DNA of 64,000 bases from the NCBI GenBank assembly GCA_016200965.1, contig JACQDT010000021.1, positions 86 to 64,085 on the forward strand, given 5' to 3'. Position 1 is the stretch's first letter; each line of letters starts with the position of its first letter. The notes below the pieces were generated by a model, which saw only the letters and a list, made by a program, of their open reading frames with translations, was not told the origin of the DNA and made no database searches. Shown piece by piece: positions 3,986-63,358 of the stretch. This stretch comes from Candidatus Azambacteria bacterium (GTDB lineage: Bacteria; Patescibacteriota; Minisyncoccia; GWC2-36-17; WO2-46-25). A program made the position numbers and the translations under genes.

Positions 3986-4735
3986 ATGTCCGAAATAATC
4001 CCTGCAATCATCGCGAAAGACAAAGAAGAATTGCAGCGCAAGCTCTCCTTGGTGGAGGGCCTTGTTTCGTGGGCGCAGATCGACGTGACCGACGGCGTAT
4101 TCACGCCGGCAACGACGTGGCCTTACGTCGACGGCGTAATTTCCAATTTCCAATTTCCAATTTCCAAACTTAATTTGGAAGTTCATCTTATGGTAAAAAA
4201 TCCTGAACATACGATTGCCAACTGGCTTGCTTCGCCCGTGAAACGCATTTTGCTTCATTACGAATCAACCGCGCCGGAGCGCATAGCGGAGTTAATCGGA
4301 AAAATTACCGCATCAGGCAAAGAAGCGGGGCTCGTTTTGAAATTAGAAACTCCTCTCTCTGTTCTTGACGATCTGTTTCACGCTTCACGCTCCCTGTTTG
4401 TCCAAGAGCGAAGCGATTGGCAACAAACAGCAGTCCAGCGAGGCCACAGGCAGAGTCGTGGCTTCACGCTTCACGTTGTACAACTCATGGGTATCGCCGA
4501 AATCGGCTACTACGGGCATGGATTTGAGCCGTACGCGCTTGACCGCATCAAGGCGTTGCGGGCAAAATATCCGGATGTTACAATAGAAGTAGATGGCGGA
4601 GTGAATCTAGAAAATGCTTCGGTGATTGCGCGGGCGGGAGCGGATAATCTTATTTCAGGAAGCGCGATTTTCAAAACTGACGACGTGAAGGGGGCGATTG
4701 ATGAGTTTAAATCTATCCTACGTTCTACTCCCTAA
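3986..4735 (+). CDS. rpe: Ribulose-phosphate 3-epimerase with an in-frame repeat-element insertion
   Basis: N-terminal IDVTDG...HLMV and C-terminal EVDGGVN...ISGSAIF Rpe motifs; ~32 extra aa (FHASRSLFVQERSDWQQTAVQRGHRQSRGFTLH) where homologs are colinear. Confidence 0.85.
   Translation: MSEIIPAIIAKDKEELQRKLSLVEGLVSWAQIDVTDGVFTPATTWPYVDGVISNFQFPISKLNLEVHLMVKNPEHTIANWLASPVKRILLHYESTAPERIAELIGKITASGKEAGLVLKLETPLSVLDDLFHASRSLFVQERSDWQQTAVQRGHRQSRGFTLHVVQLMGIAEIGYYGHGFEPYALDRIKALRAKYPDVTIEVDGGVNLENASVIARAGADNLISGSAIFKTDDVKGAIDEFKSILRSTP
4138..4165 (+). repeat. Heptanucleotide tandem repeat (AATTTCC)x4 inside the rpe coding sequence
   Basis: Four perfect 7-nt units read directly, encoding ISNFQFPISK; followed by the palindrome ttccaaacttaatttggaa. 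Confidence 0.9.
4377..4475 (+). repeat. Family-B repeat element (quasi-palindromic core ~4389-4463) flanked by direct repeats ttcacgcttcacg; 99 nt total, in frame in rpe
   Basis: Core ctccctgtttgtccaagagcgaagcgattggcaacaaacagcagtccagcgaggcc..gagtcgtggct recurs reverse-complemented at 14713-14777; ctgtttgtccaa/ttggcaacaaacag forms an imperfect hairpin. Confidence 0.85.
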
Positions 4736-9103: not shown

Positions 9104-10336
9104 ATGTTTTCATTTTTAAAGAAAAAAACAGGACAGGCGGCGGGAAAAGATATCGGGTTTGAAGAGCGGGAGCGGAAAACGCCCATCGCGGGGTATGTGT
9201 TGCTGATTGCGATGACAATCGTATCGTTATGGCTTGGGTTTACCGCGCTTTCCGATTTAGAAAATGTGCCCGCAAAGCCGCAAGCGCTTTCTTCCTGTTC
9301 GGTGCCATTTATTTCATACGGCTGGCAGGATGCGTGGCGTTTTAGCGGCACGTATTACGAATACTCCGTAAAACCGGTCTATAGCCCTGAAGCCGCATTT
9401 CCGTACCAAGTAAGACCTCCGTCGGCACAACCCTGCGTGTTTTCGGACATTGAAACAAAGCGCGGCGTCGCGGGCGCATTTGCGCAGACGAAAGGAACGC
9501 GCGATCAGATCGCGAATCTGCAAAATCAGTCAAATCAGAAACAAAACGCGCTTTCACAGCTGGATTCCCAAATTAATGAACTGCGGCGGCAATATGAACT
9601 TTCAATAGGAGAAAAAGGCGCAAAAGTATCCGGAGGAATCTATAACATCGGAGAATTACAGACGAAGTTAAAACCATTTGAGGAACAGAAGACGGCATTG
9701 GTGAATGAAGTTGCGAACATTCAGAATCAAATAAGCGCGGCATCCGATCAACTAAAGCCGTTCAACGAGAAACTGCGGGCGCTCTACAAAGAAGTGCTTG
9801 CGGACTGGCGCGTCCAGTGGCGGTGGTATGAGTTATGGGCATTCCTTCTCCAGGGACTTTTCGTGTTCCCGTTTTTCTTTATCATGCTGAAGACATATTT
9901 CCGCTTGAGCGCGAAAAACAGTCCGTATACCGTCATTGCCACCTTCACGCTTGCCACAGCATCCATTTTCGTCGTTAAAATCGCATGCGTGTATTTCTGG
10001 TCGCTGCTTTTGGCGGCGATTTTGGAAGCATTATGGGACCTTATCAACCGGATTCAGATACTCAAGAGCATTATCACGTATGCGGGAATGTTGCTGACAA
10101 TCGTCTTATTCGGCGGCGCGGTGTATTTGCTCCAGCGCAAGATTTTCAACCCTGCGCGGGTCGCTTTGCGTTATTTAAGGGATAAACGTTGCCCGTCCTG
10201 CCAGTTTTCTCTTGAGCTTTCCAAGAATTTCTGTCCGCATTGCGGAGAACAGATCCTAGAGAAATGTCCGAAATGCCATAGCGCGCGCTTTATACGGATG
10301 GCCGTGTGCCCGCACTGCGGAGATAGAAAAACATAG
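9104..10336 (+). CDS. Hypothetical membrane protein with a coiled-coil ectodomain and a C-terminal double zinc ribbon
   Basis: N-terminal TM; Q/N-rich heptad region; 3-4 further TMs; C-terminal CPSC..CPHC..CPKC..CPHC. Confidence 0.6.
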   Translation: MFSFLKKKTGQAAGKDIGFEERERKTPIAGYVLLIAMTIVSLWLGFTALSDLENVPAKPQALSSCSVPFISYGWQDAWRFSGTYYEYSVKPVYSPEAAFPYQVRPPSAQPCVFSDIETKRGVAGAFAQTKGTRDQIANLQNQSNQKQNALSQLDSQINELRRQYELSIGEKGAKVSGGIYNIGELQTKLKPFEEQKTALVNEVANIQNQISAASDQLKPFNEKLRALYKEVLADWRVQWRWYELWAFLLQGLFVFPFFFIMLKTYFRLSAKNSPYTVIATFTLATASIFVVKIACVYFWSLLLAAILEALWDLINRIQILKSIITYAGMLLTIVLFGGAVYLLQRKIFNPARVALRYLRDKRCPSCQFSLELSKNFCPHCGEQILEKCPKCHSARFIRMAVCPHCGDRKT

Positions 10337-10352
10337 AACATGAAGCATGAAA

Positions 10353-10399
10353 CTTGAAACACAAATCTTGAATTTTCGTTTCACGTTTCACGTTTCAAG
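10353..10399 (+). repeat. Inverted repeat cttgaaac/gtttcaag enclosing tandem gtttcac heptamers in the murA 5' leader
   Basis: Read directly; the ttcacgYttcacg motif resembles the direct repeats flanking the family-B element in rpe. Confidence 0.6.
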
Positions 10400-10410
10400 A
10401 TTTAAGATTC

Positions 10411-11718
10411 ATGCCATCAAAAGAAAAATTCATCATCACGGGAGGCAAGAAGCTGGAAGGGGATATAAAAGTGCGCGGCGCAAAAAACGCCGCTTTTGCC
10501 GTTCTTGCGGCGACGCTTCTTACCGATCAAGAGTGTGAAATAGACAATCTACCGCTGGTGGGCGATGTGATGGTCATGCTTGATATTTTAAAGAAAATAG
10601 GGGTACGGCATCGTTTTGTAGGAAAAAGGAAAATTGTTATTCAGGCAAAAAAACTTTATCCGGGCCGGATGCCGCATGAGCTCGTGGAGAAGATACGCGC
10701 GTCGATTTTATTATGGGGAGCGCTACCTTCGCGGGTGAAGCGGTTCGTCATGTATAAGCCGGGCGGGTGTTCCATCGGCGCGCGCATTTTGGATCCTCAT
10801 GTTGAAGCGCTGGGGAGCGCAGGGATCATTTCAAAACAAAAAAACGGTTATCTTGAGATATTAAGAAAAGATTCCATTTCATTGCGCAGAGAGGTGGTGC
10901 TCTCGGAAATGTCGGTTACTGCGACGGAGAACGTCATTTTAGCATCAGTGACGCGCAAAGGGGTGACAGAAGTGTTCTGCGCGACTCTGGAGCCGCATGT
11001 GCAGGACATGTGCCACATGCTCAATAAAATGGGCGCCGAGATTTCAGGCATCGGCACTAATACGCTTGTGATACGGGGCGTTGAAAAATTGAAGGGAGTA
11101 TCGCATACCATCATACCCGATCCGATTGAAATGGGGACTTTCATCGCTCTTGCGGCCGCGACCAAAAGCCACCTGACGATACGAAACTGCGTTCCTGAAT
11201 TCATAAAATTCGATATGTTGAAATTCAAGGAGGCGCATGTTACATTGAAAGTGAAAAACGAAAAAACGGCACAGTTCGGGTGGGGGTACAGAACTGCCGA
11301 TATTGAAGTGTTTCCTTCGCACTTAAAAGCCGTCAAGAAAGTGCACAATCTTCCGTATCCCGGATTGTGTCCCGATGTTCTTCCCATGTTCGCCGTGCTT
11401 GCGACGCAGGCAAAAGGAGTGACGCTGATCCATGATTGGATGTACGAAGGACGGCTCAAATATATTGATGAACTCAAACGGATGGGCGCGGACGCGTTCA
11501 TATGCGACCCCCATCGGGCGCTCATTACGGGCCCGACCCCGCTTGAAGGAAAAGAAATCACTAGTTTTGATCTGCGCGCGGGAGCAGTGCTTCTTATCGC
11601 CGCGCTGTGCGCCAAAGGAGAAACGATAATCTATAACGCGCATCAGGTTGACCGCGGATATGAAAGCATTGAAGCGCGCTTGAGAAAGATAGGAGCCGTC
11701 ATAACACGCGCGGCGTAA
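10411..11718 (+). CDS. murA: UDP-N-acetylglucosamine 1-carboxyvinyltransferase
   Basis: GAKNAA N-terminus, active-site KPGGCSIGARILDPH (Cys), 435 aa. Confidence 0.92.
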   Translation: MPSKEKFIITGGKKLEGDIKVRGAKNAAFAVLAATLLTDQECEIDNLPLVGDVMVMLDILKKIGVRHRFVGKRKIVIQAKKLYPGRMPHELVEKIRASILLWGALPSRVKRFVMYKPGGCSIGARILDPHVEALGSAGIISKQKNGYLEILRKDSISLRREVVLSEMSVTATENVILASVTRKGVTEVFCATLEPHVQDMCHMLNKMGAEISGIGTNTLVIRGVEKLKGVSHTIIPDPIEMGTFIALAAATKSHLTIRNCVPEFIKFDMLKFKEAHVTLKVKNEKTAQFGWGYRTADIEVFPSHLKAVKKVHNLPYPGLCPDVLPMFAVLATQAKGVTLIHDWMYEGRLKYIDELKRMGADAFICDPHRALITGPTPLEGKEITSFDLRAGAVLLIAALCAKGETIIYNAHQVDRGYESIEARLRKIGAVITRAA

Positions 11719-14188: not shown

Positions 14189-14749
14189 ATGCCACTTACA
14201 AAAAAACAAAAAGGAGAAATCATAAATTCGGTTGTTGAAAAGTTTTCCAAGAGCAAAACCCTTATTTTTACCTACTTCACGAAAATAAGCGTGGAAAAAA
14301 TCAAAAAATTGCGAAAGAATTTGAAGATGAAAGGATCTGATTTTAAGGTGATAAAAAAGAGCTTGCTTGGGGTGGCGCTGGAAAAAGCGAAGATCAACAT
14401 TGAAGGGATTGACGTGGAAAAAGCGTTTGATGCGGTCGGCGTCGTATTCGGCGGAAAAGATCAGATTCAGATCGCAAGGGCTGTTTCTGTGTTCGCGCGC
14501 GCCAAGAGCAATGAGACGTTCAAGGTGCTTGGCGGGGCATTTGACGGACAATTTGCGGGAGTAGAAAAAATCACCGCATTGGCAAGAATGTCTTCACAGG
14601 AAGAATTGTATGCGCGGCTTTTGGGACAATTCAAGGCCCCTTTGTCGCGGCTCGCATATGTGTTGAAAGCGGTTTCAGAGAAACGGCAACCCGCGAACGC
14701 AGAGAGCGGAGCCACGACTCGGCAGGCCTCGCTGGACTGCTGTTTGTAA
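14189..14749 (+). CDS. rplJ: Ribosomal protein L10 with a C-terminus rewritten by a composite A/B repeat insertion
   Basis: L10 N-terminal ~165 aa conserved; last ~20 aa (RQPANAESGATTRQASLDCCL) are encoded by repeat sequence in a different frame. Confidence 0.85.
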   Translation: MPLTKKQKGEIINSVVEKFSKSKTLIFTYFTKISVEKIKKLRKNLKMKGSDFKVIKKSLLGVALEKAKINIEGIDVEKAFDAVGVVFGGKDQIQIARAVSVFARAKSNETFKVLGGAFDGQFAGVEKITALARMSSQEELYARLLGQFKAPLSRLAYVLKAVSEKRQPANAESGATTRQASLDCCL

Positions 14750-14798
14750 CCAATCGCTTTGCTCTTGGACAAACAGGGAGCAGTCGTCGCATGACGGC
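14688..14798 (+). repeat. Composite repeat: family-A unit (14688-14712, 14778-14798) interrupted by a reverse-complement family-B core (14713-14777)
   Basis: aacccgcgaacgcagagagcggagc | B(rc) | agcagtcgtcgcatgacggc; B insertion flanked by ggagc/ggagc. Confidence 0.85.
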
Positions 14799-20847: not shown

Positions 20848-20861
20848 TCATTTTAAAAGAA

Positions 20862-20900
20862 ACATTGTACATTCTCACGCGATAGCGCGAAAACGTACAA
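20862..20900 (+). promoter_or_regulatory. Palindromic motif attgtaca-N-tgtacaat just upstream of the membrane-GH gene; second copy at 33975-34012
   Basis: cattgtacattctcacgcgatagcgcgaaaacgtacaat vs aattgtacatattcacgctatagcgggagaatgtacaat. Confidence 0.5.
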
Positions 20901-20907
20901 TTTGTTT

Positions 20908-30650: not shown

Positions 30651-32267
30651 TTATTTTTCTTCCAACTCGCGTTCTTTCTGCCGCTGTTTTGCTTCAGAGT
30701 CGGCGCGCGCCCATTGGTAGTCGCCGTAGTCCGTGAATTTGAGCATTTCTTTCGCCCAGGGGTAGCGCTGGAGCGTCTGGCGCGCCATTTCCTGGCATAC
30801 TCTGCGATAGGTGGGATGGCCCTGCGGGGTGGTGCGCAGTTCGAACATATGCTGGGCCTCGCGGAGGTTCATGCCCATCGTCCAGCGCATCTTATGGCCC
30901 ATGAGCACGGTGTATTGCGCCACATGCCGTCCGCACGCGCTTTTTACTTTTTTGTACAGCGCTTCCATTTTTTCCCGTATGGCGTCCGCTTTTTCCTGAA
31001 AGCCCGCTTTTCTGATATCGTCGTTATTTTCAAATCCGAGATAGGGATGCAACAGCTGGCGCTGTTGCGTGAGCATCCGGTGGCGCTGGAGGTCGCGGTA
31101 AATCCCAAAGTCGCCGACGATGTCAAAGGTGAGGGGATACCCCGCTTCGAGCGCGCGGTCGGGCCTGTCGCGGCGAGTTTTGCGGTTGCTTACGTAGGTG
31201 TTCAAAATGCGTTCTTTCGCCGCCGCGGGAAGCTTCGCGACTATTTCATGCAATTGCGAAAGGGGGTGTCTGCCGTACGGGTACAGCATCTGAGCGAGCG
31301 TGGACGTATAAAAATCCGCCTGACTGTCAAAAAGCGCGACCGGTTTTTCTGAAGCGGGCTTTATGTCTTTCAATAGTTCGTCGGCGTGTCTTTGCATCTC
31401 CGTCCGCGCTTTCACGAGAAATTCATTTTGCTTTGCGCGTTTCACGAACGTCGGGATCACTTGGTTGAGCGCGCTATGCGCTTTTGCGGCGATATCGCCC
31501 ATTTCAGAGAGTAGGTGCGTGTACAAATGCGACAGCAGATATTGATAAAATCTCCCGTTGCCGAACAGGCCGACATTAGTGAGTGTCGCGGCGGGCAAGA
31601 AAATGCGTATCGTATCGCACGTTTTAGTGCGGATATCGGATTTATACGTGCGGTCAAACGCCTTGAGGTCTTTTTCGTCTTTCAGGTCTGCGCGCTTTTG
31701 TTTTGTTCCTTTCCCGATGACGTCATATTCGGCTTCTTCCATCGGCTTTTGTTTCTGATAAAACTCCTGCATCGGCTCCACCAGCGACGCATATGTTTCA
31801 AACAGTTCGTTCATCACGCGCTCGTATTCGTCTTTCACGGCGCTTTGAGTAACTTCTTTCGGCCGCAAATACCGCCAATTGCCTTCTTCATTTTTATTAT
31901 CGTACACAACATAGCGGGTGGACTGCTCAATGGGGCTTCCGCCGATGCGCCGGTCTTCCACTTCTTTGGTCGCAAGGTTGGAAATCTGCTCCATACTCAC
32001 ATGCGCGCCCTCAAGCTCGCCGACGGAGTCGTCGCCGTAGGCGATCAAGATGCGCTCAATCACTTCCGCCGCTTTCACCGCGTCAAGCACGCCGTCTTTG
32101 ATGAACTCTTTCAGGAATGTTTCCAAAAAACTGCCCTGCGCCCGCGAATAGCGCGCGTATGCCGGCCCGACGATTCCCGTGAGCCCTTTGACAGCAAACA
32201 CATTGGACTCGGGGTGAGTCACATACTGTTTGAGCACGGCCAATTCTTCTTGTGTGAAGCGTGACAT
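30651..32267 (-). CDS. ThyX-like (FAD-dependent thymidylate synthase family), unusually long tandem-domain form
   Basis: N half carries ..RRIGGSPIEQSTRY.. and C half ..QRHRMLTQQRQLL.. (halves of the ThyX RHRx7S..RY signature); sits in the tmk/dcd/folD/glyA cluster. Confidence 0.5.
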   Translation of the reverse strand: MSRFTQEELAVLKQYVTHPESNVFAVKGLTGIVGPAYARYSRAQGSFLETFLKEFIKDGVLDAVKAAEVIERILIAYGDDSVGELEGAHVSMEQISNLATKEVEDRRIGGSPIEQSTRYVVYDNKNEEGNWRYLRPKEVTQSAVKDEYERVMNELFETYASLVEPMQEFYQKQKPMEEAEYDVIGKGTKQKRADLKDEKDLKAFDRTYKSDIRTKTCDTIRIFLPAATLTNVGLFGNGRFYQYLLSHLYTHLLSEMGDIAAKAHSALNQVIPTFVKRAKQNEFLVKARTEMQRHADELLKDIKPASEKPVALFDSQADFYTSTLAQMLYPYGRHPLSQLHEIVAKLPAAAKERILNTYVSNRKTRRDRPDRALEAGYPLTFDIVGDFGIYRDLQRHRMLTQQRQLLHPYLGFENNDDIRKAGFQEKADAIREKMEALYKKVKSACGRHVAQYTVLMGHKMRWTMGMNLREAQHMFELRTTPQGHPTYRRVCQEMARQTLQRYPWAKEMLKFTDYGDYQWARADSEAKQRQKERELEEK

Positions 32268-33945: not shown

Positions 33946-33974
33946 TTCATCATATCACGAAAAAACTTAAAAAC

Positions 33975-34012
33975 GAATTGTACATATTCACGCTATAGCG
34001 GGAGAATGTACA
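33975..34012 (+). promoter_or_regulatory. Second copy of the attgtaca-N-tgtacaat palindrome (between the uvrC stop and the glyA start)
   Basis: See 20862-20900. Confidence 0.5.
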
Positions 34013-34034
34013 ATCTTTCAACTTTCAGAAACCG

Positions 34035-40186: not shown

Positions 40187-42505
40187 TTATTCCGGATGCA
40201 CTTTCGCCGCGCGTTCGCGCAGATAGCGTTTCAACAGAGGATGACCCTCCAATGAAGGGTCTTCTTTCATAATGCGCAGAGCTTCATCGCGCGTCTCCTT
40301 GACCAGCGCGGCGTCCGCCAGCGATGCCATTGCAAGATCAGGAAGACCCCATTGGCGCGTTCCCAGGAAATCACCCGGGCCGCGCAGAGCCAAGTCCTTT
40401 TCCGCAAGCGCAAATCCACTGTGCGATTCAAGCAGGGCTTTCAAGCGGCGATTTTCCTCCGGTGCCGCACTGCCGTCATACGACGACTGCTCCGCTCTCT
40501 GCGTTCGCGGGTTGTCGTCATACGACGACTGCTCCGCTCTCTGCGTTCGCGGGTTGCCTGAAAAAAGCAGGCAGTATGACTGGTGCTCGCCTCTGCCGAC
40601 CCTGCCGCGAAACTGATGCAGTTGCGCAAGTCCGAACAGTTCCGCGCCTTCTACCATCATGACGGTCGCATTGGGCACATCAATACCCACTTCCACCACC
40701 GACGTAGACACGAGAATATCCGCGCCACCGTTTTTGAACTTTTTCATCGTTTCTTCTTTCTCCTTCGCTTTCATTTTTCCGTGAAGCATTACGACCCGCA
40801 GATCCGGAAACATCTCTGCCGATAGTTTTCTATACTCCTCTTTCACTGTTTTCACTTCCGCCGAAAGAAATTGCCGCACAGTAGCAGGGGACAACTCACT
40901 TCCAACTTCAATCCGAGGACAAATAACAAATATCTGTCTGCCTTCTTTTGCTTGCTTTCTGATAAATGCGTACGCCGCCTGACGATGTGCGGGAAGCACG
41001 ATCTTGGTAATGACCTTTTTTCTTTCTTTGGGCATCTCATCAAGCAGTGAAATATCAAGGTCTCCGTATAGCGTGAGGGCAAGCGTGCGCGGAATCGGGG
41101 TGGCAGTCATACTTAACAAATGGGGAGCCGCACCAACGCGGCTTGTTTTTACAAGTGCCGCGCGTTGTTTGACGCCGAAGCGATGCTGTTCGTCCAGCAC
41201 CACAAGCCCTAATTTGCGAAATACGCAATTTTTTGAGATAAGCGCGTGCGTGCCCACGACCACCGGCAACGCGCCTTGGGCAATCATCTGTATAACATCC
41301 TGTTTTTTCATTTTCCTGTCCGCGCGCAATTCTCCGTCGTGGACGATCGCCTGAGCGCCCGTCAGCAATCCCACGTCACATCCGAACAATGCAAAGAACT
41401 GTGCAAATACTGAAAAATGCTGAAGCGCGAGCACCTCGGTGGGCGCCATCAGGGCGATCTGCCATCCGTTTCGAGCGGCATTTAAAGCGGCAATCGCGGC
41501 GACCACCGTTTTTCCCGAGCCGACTTCGCCTTGCAACAGACGGTTCATCGGGAACGGTTTTTGCATATCTTTTAATATTTCCCATGCCGCGCGGCGCTGG
41601 GCATCCGTCAGCCGGAAGGGGAGTAGGGACACGAATCGTTTCACCGCTTCAAGGTCAAGCGCAAGAGGGGGCGCGGATTCTTTTTTGACGGCGTTCTTCG
41701 CTTCCAACGCCAAAAGGTGGAGGAAAAATAATTCTTCAAACGCAAGGCGTTTTCTCGCGCGCGCGCTCTCTTCTTTTGTGCGCGGAAAATGGATTTCCCT
41801 CAATGCCGCCCCCAACGCAGGAAGCCGATGGCGGCGCAGAGTGTCTTGCGGAAGCGGATCAGTGATATGTGAAATGAACGGCAGGGCGTTTTTCATCAGA
41901 TATCTCAACCAACGGGAAGTAATGCCTGCCGTTTCGCGATACACCGGAACCAGGCGGCCGGTGTGCGTCGCGACACCGTCTTTCGCGACGAATTCATACG
42001 CTGGATTTTGAAGTACCAGCGATGTTTTGTCAGCTGTTATTTTCCCCGAAAGATTCACCATCCTGCCGACACGCAAATTTTTTGTGAGGAACGGCTGGTT
42101 GAACCACACCGCGCGCATGCTTCCGGTCCCGTCGGAAATCACCGCTTCGGTAAGATGCATGCGTCTTTTCCATGTGTGCGCGCTTTCCACCCGCTCCAAT
42201 TTTCCGGAGATGGTCGCGACGGCGCCCGCTTTCACGTCCGCTATGGACACTTTTTTGGAAAAATCATCGTAGCGGAACGGCACGTGCATGAGCAGATCGT
42301 ACACCGTACGGATGCCGAGCGCGGCGAGCGGCTTGATGATTGTGGCACTTGCTCCTTTTAATTTTTCAATAGGGGAGAGAAGCGATGTGTCGTCATACGA
42401 CGACTGCTCCGCTCTCGGGGTTCGCGGGTTGCCGTCATACGACGACTGCTCCGCTCTCTGGGTTCGCGGGTTGCCGTCTTTCAGATGAAGAGATGATTTT
42501 AACAT
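40187..42505 (-). CDS. recG: ATP-dependent DNA helicase RecG carrying tandem family-A repeat dimers near both termini
   Basis: GEVGSGKT Walker A, DEQHRFG motif II and helicase C domain; inserts GNPRTQRAEQSSYDGNPRTPRAEQSSYDD (N-term) and GNPRTQRAEQSSYDDNPRTQRAEQSSYDG (C-term, just before the conserved ..LAEKDLALRGPGD); start taken at MLKSS. Confidence 0.88.
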   Translation of the reverse strand: MLKSSLHLKDGNPRTQRAEQSSYDGNPRTPRAEQSSYDDTSLLSPIEKLKGASATIIKPLAALGIRTVYDLLMHVPFRYDDFSKKVSIADVKAGAVATISGKLERVESAHTWKRRMHLTEAVISDGTGSMRAVWFNQPFLTKNLRVGRMVNLSGKITADKTSLVLQNPAYEFVAKDGVATHTGRLVPVYRETAGITSRWLRYLMKNALPFISHITDPLPQDTLRRHRLPALGAALREIHFPRTKEESARARKRLAFEELFFLHLLALEAKNAVKKESAPPLALDLEAVKRFVSLLPFRLTDAQRRAAWEILKDMQKPFPMNRLLQGEVGSGKTVVAAIAALNAARNGWQIALMAPTEVLALQHFSVFAQFFALFGCDVGLLTGAQAIVHDGELRADRKMKKQDVIQMIAQGALPVVVGTHALISKNCVFRKLGLVVLDEQHRFGVKQRAALVKTSRVGAAPHLLSMTATPIPRTLALTLYGDLDISLLDEMPKERKKVITKIVLPAHRQAAYAFIRKQAKEGRQIFVICPRIEVGSELSPATVRQFLSAEVKTVKEEYRKLSAEMFPDLRVVMLHGKMKAKEKEETMKKFKNGGADILVSTSVVEVGIDVPNATVMMVEGAELFGLAQLHQFRGRVGRGEHQSYCLLFSGNPRTQRAEQSSYDDNPRTQRAEQSSYDGSAAPEENRRLKALLESHSGFALAEKDLALRGPGDFLGTRQWGLPDLAMASLADAALVKETRDEALRIMKEDPSLEGHPLLKRYLRERAAKVHPE
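40473..40555 (-). repeat. Family-A repeat, tandem dimer (2 x 42 nt), in frame in the recG 3' region
   Basis: Two units ccgtcatacgacgactgctccgctctctgcgttcgcgggtt read directly. Confidence 0.9.
42388..42471 (-). repeat. Family-A repeat, tandem dimer (2 x 42 nt), in frame in the recG 5' region
   Basis: Two units gtcgtcatacgacgactgctccgctctc(g/t)gggttcgcgggtt read directly. Confidence 0.9.
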
Positions 42506-63135: not shown

Positions 63136-63250
63136 GGCGGAGGCGAGAGCCCCGCTAGAGCGGGATTGCGTTTTGTAACTTTGCTGCGCTTCAGACAAAA
63201 CGGGAAGATTCGAACCTCTGATACCTTTCGGTATACTCGCTTCCCCCGAC
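63136..63250 (-). pseudogene. Duplicated tRNA-Ser 3' fragment (T arm + variable arm) with a 57-nt structured insert; not foldable as a tRNA
   Basis: gattcgaacctctgatacctt(t/g)cggtatact shared with 63286-63320; gcggaggcgagag shared with 63271-63283; this copy encodes CCA. Confidence 0.4.
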
Positions 63251-63269: not shown

Positions 63270-63358
63270 AGCGGAGGCGAGAGGATTCGAACCTCTGATA
63301 CCTTGCGGTATACTTGCTTTCCAAGCAAGCGCACTCGGCCTCTATGCGACGCCTCCGC
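63270..63358 (-). tRNA. tRNA-Ser (anticodon GGA), long variable arm
   Basis: Hand fold: acceptor ggaggcg/cgcctcc, anticodon stem cttgc/gcaag with loop ttGGAaa, variable hairpin gtatacc-gcaa-ggtatc, T arm agagg-ttcgaat-cctct. Confidence 0.7.

Follow-up and report, generated by a model that had tools for sequence, protein, structure and literature searches.

Insertion sequences of the IS200/IS605 group have neither inverted ends nor target duplications; they carry bulged subterminal hairpins and move through strand-specific single-stranded DNA (ssDNA) intermediates and circular junctions. The bacterial interspersed mosaic elements (BIMEs) are mosaic repeat modules that are extragenic and specific to enterobacteria, and the mitochondrial GC clusters or 'byp' elements and the insert in phage T4 gene 60 are GC-rich hairpin inserts in coding genes, which break the reading frame and are skipped by the ribosome. 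Repetitive extragenic palindromic sequences (REPs) and the REPINs built from them are short imperfect palindromes with a conserved hairpin that are thought to be moved in trans by a single-copy HUH tyrosine transposase, RAYT (PMC3337134, PMC3116915). [quoted passage not shown] Here we analyze a 72-nucleotide (nt) repeat, element B, that lies in frame within an rpe-like gene of Candidatus Azambacteria bacterium, presumably a groundwater organism to judge by its HY250 locus tag (assembly GCA_016200965.1, contig JACQDT010000021.1, positions 86 to 64,085; this whole stretch of 64,000 nt is called the window). The 72-nt segment is very likely the insertion of a mobile repeat, and positions 4390–4461 probably belong, as a single copy, to a family of small, non-coding, hairpin-forming selfish elements that is widespread in the bacteria of the candidate phyla radiation (CPR).

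The features of the insertion site, in window coordinates, are as follows:

3986..4735, + strand: rpe-like ORF of 249 amino acids (aa), the host of the insertion (ORF list, Pfam PF00834 in two stretches, AlphaFold)
4376..4389, + strand: heptamer units 1 and 2, TTTCACG CTTCACG, coding for F131–R135 (period-7 row of Tandem Repeats Finder; relatives with four contiguous units)
4390..4461, + strand: element B copy 1, 72 nt, CTCC...GTCGTGG, coding for S136–G159, boundaries uncertain by 1–3 nt (absent from the relatives' rpe, repeated in the window, covariance model R1 match of 77.4 bits, E 1e-19)
4394..4430, + strand: hairpin HP1, with an 8-bp outer stem, a 2-nt 3' bulge, a 4-bp inner stem, a tandem G.A and a GC-GAA-GC apical mini-hairpin (folds, covariation)
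4435..4461, + strand: hairpin HP2, CCAGCGA-GGCC(aca)GGCa-GAGTCGTGG, which is variable and defines the B subtype (fold)
4462..4475, + strand: heptamer units 3 and 4, CTTCACG CTTCACG, coding for F160–H163 (Tandem Repeats Finder, comparison with relatives)

Positions 4376–4475 read TTTCACG CTTCACG (72 nt) CTTCACG CTTCACG, and element B lies exactly between heptamer units 2 and 3. The composite is 99 nt long (27 nt of heptamer array plus the 72-nt insert) and preserves the frame, as the original prediction had it; the ORF is open and intact, and its match to Pfam Ribul_P_3_epim (PF00834) is split in two by the insert. The net gain relative to the closest relatives is 24 residues (S136–G159) instead of the roughly 32 first proposed, the FHAS(R) and FTLH flanks being native: in place of the LFHASR-(24 aa)-FTLHVVQLMG of the window, the closest clade has LFQASSFKFHVVQLMG or a similar sequence. 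Comparison of rpe with that of relatives, a step already suggested with the prediction, found the element absent and the array present in four of them, which carry four contiguous heptamers (YTTCANG) at the same position of the gene:

L138: TTTCAAG CTCCAAG CTTCAAG CTTCAAG
L140: TTTCAAG CCTCAAG CTTCAAG TTTCACG
L139: CTTCATG ATTCACA TTTCAAG CTTCATG
L013: TTTCAAA TTTCAAG CTTCACG TTTCAGG

Since these four relatives have the contiguous array without the element, the array is older than the element. The 13-nt direct repeat that flanks the insert (ttcacgcttcacg, at 4377–4389 and 4463–4475) had been put down either to a target-site duplication or to insertion into a repeat that was already there. It is the split array, and therefore the second alternative holds and a target-site duplication is ruled out. 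L013 is syntenic with the window, and no member of the element family was found in the 34 kb of this relative (L013/L014).

The product of the host gene (NCBI protein HY250_02160, annotated as "hypothetical") has a nearest homologue with 56% identity by BLASTP or 64% by alignment, and it keeps all 16 of the columns that are invariant over 66 homologues. Homologues are 204–243 aa long in 117 of the 119 others listed; the two outliers are P0098, with 272 aa and an insert of its own, and a fragment of 155 aa. A second, independent assembly (GCA_016178885.1, locus L012) contains the same rpe with the same insert and differs by 1 mismatch in 3844 nt, which confirms the observation and excludes an accident of assembly. 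An AlphaFold model built with the 66 homologues has a pLDDT (predicted local distance difference test) of 90.3 and a pTM (predicted template-modelling score) of 0.87, and its top PDB matches are Rpe structures. The insert is placed between the helix of residues 126–144 (helix 5) and the strand of residues 162–168 (strand 6); residues 144–156 have pLDDT values below 50, and the rest of the barrel is confident. In a TIM barrel the helix-to-strand loops lie on the face opposite the catalytic face, and the insert in this model is accordingly a low-confidence loop opposite the active site. Judged by the model and TIM-barrel topology it would thus be a fold-compatible surface loop, as in the in-frame repeats of the RPE kind, and the suggestion that the element is tolerated inside a TIM-barrel enzyme is borne out to that extent.

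Three further observations concern Rpe itself. Two other CPR rpe genes have unrelated hairpin-rich inserts in the same helix-5/strand-6 loop (L015:616–708, 93 nt, in P0098, and L016:2361–2459, 99 nt, in P0073), which indicates that this loop is permissive; no further copies of these two inserts were present in the DNA fetched. A second heptamer array, (AATTTCC) x4.3, lies at 4138–4167 of the window rpe and codes for ISNFQFPISK; it is lineage-specific, since the relatives have an unrelated 13-residue segment there (DPAALRDITTTVR). Finally, the clade to which this Rpe belongs has a Gln at position 31 that is nearly invariant in the 66 homologues (window 4076–4096, residues 31–37, QIDVTDG). We take canonical Rpe (E. 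coli and human, H-x-D-V-M-D) to have a metal-ligand His at that position, and the sequences suggest that metal binding or function may be different in the Gln31-bearing clade.

Element B is not confined to rpe. Two more members of the family, one of them divergent, occur in the window:

14712..14780, - strand: element B copy 2, 69 nt, nested in a 42-nt family-A unit at the 3' end of rplJ (alignment with intact A units; R1 match of 77.3 bits)
14685..14711, - strand: 3' part of the family-A unit split by B copy 2 (repeat comparison)
14781..14798, - strand: 5' part of the same unit (alignment; same junction in eight other CPR genome or metagenome loci, among the matches listed)
63150..63206, - strand: third, divergent member, 57 nt, an HP1-like hairpin followed by a CCCGC-tcta-GCGGG hairpin (covariance model R1, DNA fold)
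63136..63244, - strand: partial duplicate of tRNA-Ser(GGA) that runs from the anticodon loop as far as the 3' end, its T loop broken (GAATC^CTCTCG) by the third element (comparison with the intact tRNA)
63271..63356, - strand: intact tRNA-Ser(GGA), the empty-site reference, with the pseudo-copy 23 nt downstream (ARAGORN, Rfam)

Positions 4389–4445 and 14725–14781 match over 57 nt at 95%, and in a global alignment of 4390–4461 with 14712–14780 (- strand), which contains one 3-nt gap, 64 of the 72 columns agree, or 89% (93% when the gap is left out). The reverse-complemented recurrence at more than 90% that had been claimed is therefore roughly right. The chance expectation of a 73-mer from the element was 0 in 100 shuffles. 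Copy 2 lies at the very end of its host: the rplJ ORF is 14189..14749, its stop codon (14747–14749) falls inside HP1 of the copy, and the Pfam L10 domain ends at residue 103. The R1 match of the third member (63163–63207, - strand, 34.1 bits, E 2.6e-7) includes compensatory changes in the outer stem, its DNA fold has a z-score of -3.2, and comparison of the broken tRNA-Ser copy with the intact gene shows a simple insertion with no duplication.

Outside the window the family proved to be large: it is a dispersed, repeated, non-coding element. A search with a 21-mer of the element, such as had been recommended for its core, found nine full copies in the species-representative metagenome-assembled genomes (MAGs) of GTDB, in MAGs labelled Saccharibacteria, Paceibacterota and Azambacteria; two more 21-mer matches, in Planctomycetota, were without the rest of the element. 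A gapped HP1 pattern was present at 120 or more metagenome loci, and with the three window copies this confirms the prediction of dispersal. We collected 126 distinct copies with their flanks, and their contexts, counted among the matches listed, include the following:

46 of 126 copies: B-type HP2
9 of 126 copies: within a family-A unit, at the fixed junction GACGACTG^CTCCGC, window copy 2 included
3 of 126 copies: at a (CTTCACG)n unit boundary, in rpe and in two pilin genes on a contig of a MAG labelled Saccharibacteria
8 of 126 copies: head-to-tail tandems, with the common junction GTCGTG^GCTCC
10 of 126 copies: immediately behind a 5' fragment of tRNA-Gln or tRNA-Ser, the same tRNA being present intact 60–250 nt downstream

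The pilin copies (L004) differ from the rpe copy at only 2 of 72 positions, whereas the best Rpe homologue found anywhere is only 56–64% identical to the window protein. That copies are near-identical across MAGs labelled as different CPR lineages points either to horizontal spread of the elements or to a very conserved machinery that recognizes them. No fewer than 12 of the 126 copies are in-frame insertions in real genes, as RPE-like repeats are in housekeeping ORFs. Twelve such copies are divided equally between orientations (6 sense and 6 antisense) and use several frames. Pfam was run on eight of them, and in seven of the in-ORF copies, as in the window Rpe, Pfam domains flank the element on both sides or extend across it. 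The hosts supported in this way are Mfd, RNase HII, FolD, YchF, PheT and Fpg (in the last a 175-aa stretch covers the 117-position profile), and one more copy is in a pilin leader; the copies in RluD-like and NDH-like ORFs come directly after the sole matched domain. Searches at the protein level were much less productive. A word-index search for host proteins with the encoded peptide returned one irrelevant match, and a peptide profile search of 1.84 billion representative proteins only 4 weak ones, where clustering at 50% identity probably masks inserts. In the literature, including that on CPR bacteria, we found no description of such elements. The HP1 pattern had no match in the viral contigs of IMG/VR, and carriage by phages was rejected on this ground.

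The unit is made up of a short 5' tag (G)CTCC, HP1, CAGT, and then a subtype-specific HP2. Across the family HP1 has an 8-bp outer stem (CTGTTTGT/ACAAACAG), a variable 3' bulge of 2–3 nt, an inner CCAA/TTGG stem, a tandem G.A and a GC-NNN-GC apex. The window hairpin (CTGTTTGTCCAA / TTGG-CA-ACAAACAG), first noticed as an imperfect hairpin, is predicted to fold both as RNA and as DNA, and covariation supports it. Among 51 distinct members of the matches listed, 97.7% of cells are paired and two-sided changes are found in 7 of the 14 pairs; the covariation score of 0.181 compares with 0.091 in shuffles, none of 500 shuffles reaches the observed value, and slid controls collapse. Among 71 distinct hairpins of the matches listed, one inner pair is C-G in 51 and T-A in 16, and the apical pair is C-G in 53, T.G in 9 and T-A in 5. 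In the same 71 hairpins there are 13 G.T wobbles on the sense strand against 5 C.A/A.C (the wobbles of the antisense strand), and the structure is thus selected on one strand. The small stem of HP2 varies (GGC/GCC or GGCC/GGCC, with different loops), and the window type is one of several second hairpins. No terminal inverted repeats are present in the element sequence: the 5' end (CTCCCTGTTTG) mismatches the reverse complement of the 3' end (CCACGACTCTG), and the inverted repeat is internal, in HP1. A known RNA family was considered and is ruled out by Rfam, in which only tRNAs reach the gathering score in the window and the best hit over 4300–4550 (E 0.69) is to an unrelated microRNA model.

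In several loci the apical loop of HP1 contains a nested palindrome of about 20 nt (e.g. CCTGCCTGCCGGCAGGCAGG, in L032, L058, L060, L085, L111 and L136; L003 has 23 extra nt there), and hairpin loops thus seem to be insertion sites for other small palindromes.

Filled and empty sites can be compared directly for the family-A unit, for tRNA-Ser in L095 (insertion point GGTCG^AAAGCG) and L075, and for the window tRNA-Ser pseudo-copy. All are simple insertions with a junction ambiguity of 0–5 nt, which arises because the GCTCC end of the element resembles the right flank, and no consistent target duplication was found in these pairs. The left flanks end in ...TCACG, GACTG, GGTCG, GGTTG, TCTTG, GTAGG and GAATC, and only the final G (once C) recurs.

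The tRNA loci (tRNA-Gln in L001, L028, L066, L072, L096, L110, L126 and L133; tRNA-Ser in L032, L075 and L095) have a common arrangement in which the HP1 unit begins where a 15–22-nt 5' fragment of the tRNA ends (mostly ...GGTAGG^), and an intact tRNA with a similar upstream region follows 60–250 nt downstream. In L028 the fragment and the HP1 pattern occur twice in succession. It looks as though tRNA genes were hit repeatedly and the gene was regenerated each time.

The comparisons show the following history. In an ancestor of this Azambacteria lineage the helix-5/strand-6 loop of rpe already had a heptamer array of four units, and the element then entered at the boundary between units 2 and 3, adding 24 codons with no stop and no frameshift. 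The family as a whole enters coding genes, other repeats (the family-A unit and larger palindromes) and the loops of tRNA copies. As for the mechanism, the intermediate may be single-stranded, as ssDNA or, less likely, RNA, with HP1 recognized by an enzyme acting in trans, perhaps of the HUH/IS200-IS605 type, the REP/RAYT type, or a hairpin-specific site-specific recombinase, and joining would take place at the GCTCC end. This route, through a single strand and a trans-acting enzyme, is put forward only tentatively, and the chances are somewhat against it. The rpe copy would survive because its length is a multiple of three, it is open in the frame that is used, and in the model it forms a flexible surface loop away from the catalytic face; it presumably has no function for Rpe.

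A number of points weigh against this account. The protein database contained no empty-site rpe allele of a close relative (by BLASTP the next best Rpe has 56% identity), so the insertion is deduced from relatives whose Rpe proteins are 52–64% identical. The folding z-scores of the element are modest (-1.5 to -1.9), and for this reason covariation is the stronger support for the hairpin; in turn, the pattern used for the metagenome scan fixed parts of HP1, and conservation at those positions is partly an effect of collection. All six frames of the rpe copy are free of stop codons (2.2% of shuffles equal this), but only 4 of 36 distinct B-type copies are open in all six and this is not a trait of the family. 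The idea that the element is built to be open in every frame is true of the rpe copy and refuted for the family, and the copies in genes are better seen as survivors than as products of design. The search for an enzyme was also negative: no recombinase recurs near the copies (clustering of all ORFs with 120 aa or more in 0.88 Mb of flanking DNA gave only housekeeping families), Pfam found no transposase or recombinase in ten unannotated ORFs of the window, and tblastn of 0.94 Mb with IS608/IS200 TnpA sequences, a weak probe, returned nothing better than E 0.8. Orientation relative to GC skew is mixed, the sense strand being on the presumed lagging-strand template in 2 of the 3 window copies, and three copies are too few for a replication strand bias to be entertained. 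Lastly, among the matches listed the B subtype of the rpe copy is always within (CTTCACG)n arrays and the A-embedded subtype always at one A junction, and since subtypes stay tied to their contexts it may be composites rather than bare B that move.

This last point is the basis of the main rival explanation, that a cassette of heptamers, B and heptamers (or of A5', B and A3') entered rpe by homologous or microhomology recombination, or by gene conversion, with the resident array, as might follow when foreign DNA is taken up. One and the same B subtype (CA bulge and GGCC-gca-GGCC HP2) is indeed found at a (CTTCACG)n boundary both in rpe (2+2 units) and in pilin genes (3+2 in L004, 2+2 in L009), the A-embedded subtype is at one junction in nine loci among the matches listed, and the window units are all (C/T)TTCACG where those of the relatives are mostly CTTCAAG or CTTCATG, which fits replacement of the array. 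However, the homology arms would be just 14 nt on each side, which is short for RecA-type recombination, and B-type units with the same 5' boundary are present in many unrelated flanks (tRNA loops, intergenic DNA, head-to-tail tandems), so the B unit can join non-homologous DNA. We therefore consider such an exchange unlikely as the origin of the rpe insert. A function at the level of RNA or translation is a much more remote prospect. Such an element could be intron-like, bypassed by the ribosome as in T4 gene 60 or mitochondrial 'byp', or a cis-acting RNA of benefit to the host, and the conservation of structure on one strand with G.U-type wobbles, the copies in the loops of tRNA gene copies, and the direct repeats around the rpe hairpin, which are loosely like take-off and landing sites, could be read in that way. 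But the rpe frame stays open through the element, whose length is divisible by three, and neither bypass nor splicing is therefore required; the equal numbers of sense and antisense copies in ORFs, in different frames, make a sense-strand RNA function tied to the host transcript unlikely; the interrupted tRNA copies are always next to an intact one, as dead copies would be; and no Rfam family matches.

The explanation that selection acted on the 24-residue peptide as a protein module, extending an Rpe loop in this lineage, with the DNA repetition secondary, is more improbable still. The peptide (A)SRSLFVQERSDWQQTAVQRG(H/R)R(Q/P)SRGFTLH does occur in Rpe and in two pilin precursors, and the loop is a hot spot for extension in CPR Rpe proteins. 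Against this, the same DNA is found elsewhere in other frames, on the other strand or outside genes, its conservation tracks base pairing and not codons, the modelled segment is disordered, and the weak matches among the 1.84 billion representative proteins number just four. As for a chimera in which an assembler stitched the repeat into rpe by mistake, the source is a MAG and repeats can mislead assemblers, but two independent assemblies have the same allele, the junctions fall exactly at a heptamer boundary with the frame kept, and in-frame insertions of this kind recur in many assemblies that come from different studies; we regard the chance of this as negligible. The reading that we prefer remains that of a selfish hairpin element inserted into an older heptamer array.

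A bolder version of this reading is that HP1/HP2 units, 42-nt A units, heptamer arrays and larger palindromes together make up an undescribed, CPR-wide, modular system of mutually nesting hairpins that is moved by a new mechanism. This mechanism would be directed to single strands or hairpin loops, leave no duplications, join by the GCTCC tag and hit tRNA genes with an intact tRNA regenerated alongside, and the elements would cross between lineages labelled as different phyla nearly unchanged. We think this rather doubtful as a whole. If true, the system would represent a mobile element of a new class, and one that steadily supplies ultra-small bacteria with new protein loops.

Several observations bear on the other repeats mentioned above. 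Family A is a 42-nt unit (GTCGTCATACGACGACTGCTCCGCTCTCTGCGTTCGCGGGTTGCC) with the in-frame peptide GNPRTQRAEQSSYD. In the window it is found at these positions:

225–278: family A
40471–40558: family A
42388–42475: family A
14685–14711 with 14781–14798: family A, split by B copy 2

Its hosts are a TrxB-like ORF (one unit), RecG twice (two tandem units each) and the 3' end of rplJ. Units are also present in other CPR loci (five times in L006, and in L038 and L107), and the peptide occurs in a YraN-like ORF of L038 and in FolD, Mfd and Fpg ORFs elsewhere. The two adjacent TrxB-like paralogues (69–1040 and 1027–1986) share 96 nt at 75% (419–514 and 1362–1457), and the family-A unit is in the first only. 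An inverted repeat pair of 49 nt (20859–20907 and 33971–34019, 86% complementary) consists of two hairpins (TTGTACA...TGTACAA) that lie between or at the ends of ORFs, and a similar palindrome follows HP1 in L019.

Among perfect tandem arrays, period 7 prevails. All of the DNA fetched (883 kb, window included) contains 11 perfect tandem arrays of period 7 and 4 of period 6 with at least three copies, and none of period 5 or of periods 8–11. The period-7 sequences vary (AAACATG, AAGCGTG, AAAGTTC and others), and some process in these bacteria creates or maintains arrays of about four 7-nt units. A degenerate (AAACATG) x4.7 array followed by an inverted (CGTTTCA) x3 array lies at 10329–10397, between the ORFs 9104–10336 and 10411–11718, and from their sequences the two could pair as a long hairpin. 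An (AAACATG)n array is also found directly upstream of the L004 pilin gene.

Two other features of the window may be mentioned. A ThyX-like ORF (30654–32267, - strand) has 538 aa, which we take to be much longer than expected for ThyX, and the Thy1 profile of 191 positions matches it in two stretches, the best at residues 62–273; from its sequence it may be another gene lengthened by insertions. GC skew is positive over 1–24 kb, about zero or mixed over 24–44 kb and clearly negative over 44–64 kb, with a cumulative maximum at about 36–40 kb, and the window may span a replication terminus or origin.

CPR genomes are very small and are usually called streamlined, and structured mini-insertions in genes for core enzymes, ribosomal proteins and DNA repair are unexpected in them. 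Such elements lengthen and disguise CPR proteins, cause false "hypothetical" annotations such as that of this Rpe, and can break assemblies. Covariance model R1 makes the family searchable, and the filled and empty sites (the A unit, the tRNA loops and the heptamer boundary) define what an in vitro mobility assay must reproduce.

The described systems mentioned at the outset each share some features with this family and differ from it in others. Like the mitochondrial 'byp' elements and the T4 gene 60 insert, element B is a short hairpin inside a protein-coding gene, but the window rpe frame is open and has no stop after the putative take-off site. With BIMEs it shares a combinatorial use of modules, which in this case are HP1/HP2 units, the A unit, heptamer arrays and larger palindromes; the sequences are unrelated, and BIMEs are extragenic and enterobacterial. 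Like a MITE it is small, non-coding and multi-copy (57–72 nt, with three copies in the 64-kb window and at least 120 loci elsewhere), non-autonomous, and presumably mobilized in trans. It has, however, neither of the MITE hallmarks of terminal inverted repeats and target-site duplications, and no parent insertion sequence was found near the copies. In the original prediction it had been called MITE-like; the small size and lack of autonomy stand, the inverted ends and target duplication do not, and since its ends are not inverted repeats the name holds only loosely. What is conserved is a hairpin rather than coding capacity, as in the REPs and REPINs; REPINs are extragenic, lineage-specific and mostly vertical, whereas the elements are often intragenic (at least 12 of the 126 copies lie inside ORFs) and are shared almost unchanged between MAGs labelled as different CPR lineages, and no RAYT was identified in the DNA covered. 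In anatomy the element is like the IS200/IS605 group, in the lack of inverted ends and target duplication, the bulged hairpin, the strand-specificity and the head-to-tail tandems, but the fixed tetra- or pentanucleotide target of that group is not apparent 5' of the element in the left flanks compared, and no Y1 transposase was found in the 0.94 Mb searched by tblastn with the weak TnpA probe. The Rickettsia RPEs, which we compared by their published description, are about 150 bp long and have a conserved peptide for each family. Element B, by contrast, is 57–72 nt long, uses several frames and both strands so that its peptide is not conserved from copy to copy, nests in other repeats and tRNA copies, forms head-to-tail tandems and is near-identical across CPR-labelled MAGs. 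Nevertheless, both are short, palindromic and non-coding with many copies, both have a sizeable share of in-frame, fold-compatible insertions and no linked transposase, and the family described here would be a second, independent case after Rickettsia of protein loops shaped by selfish DNA.

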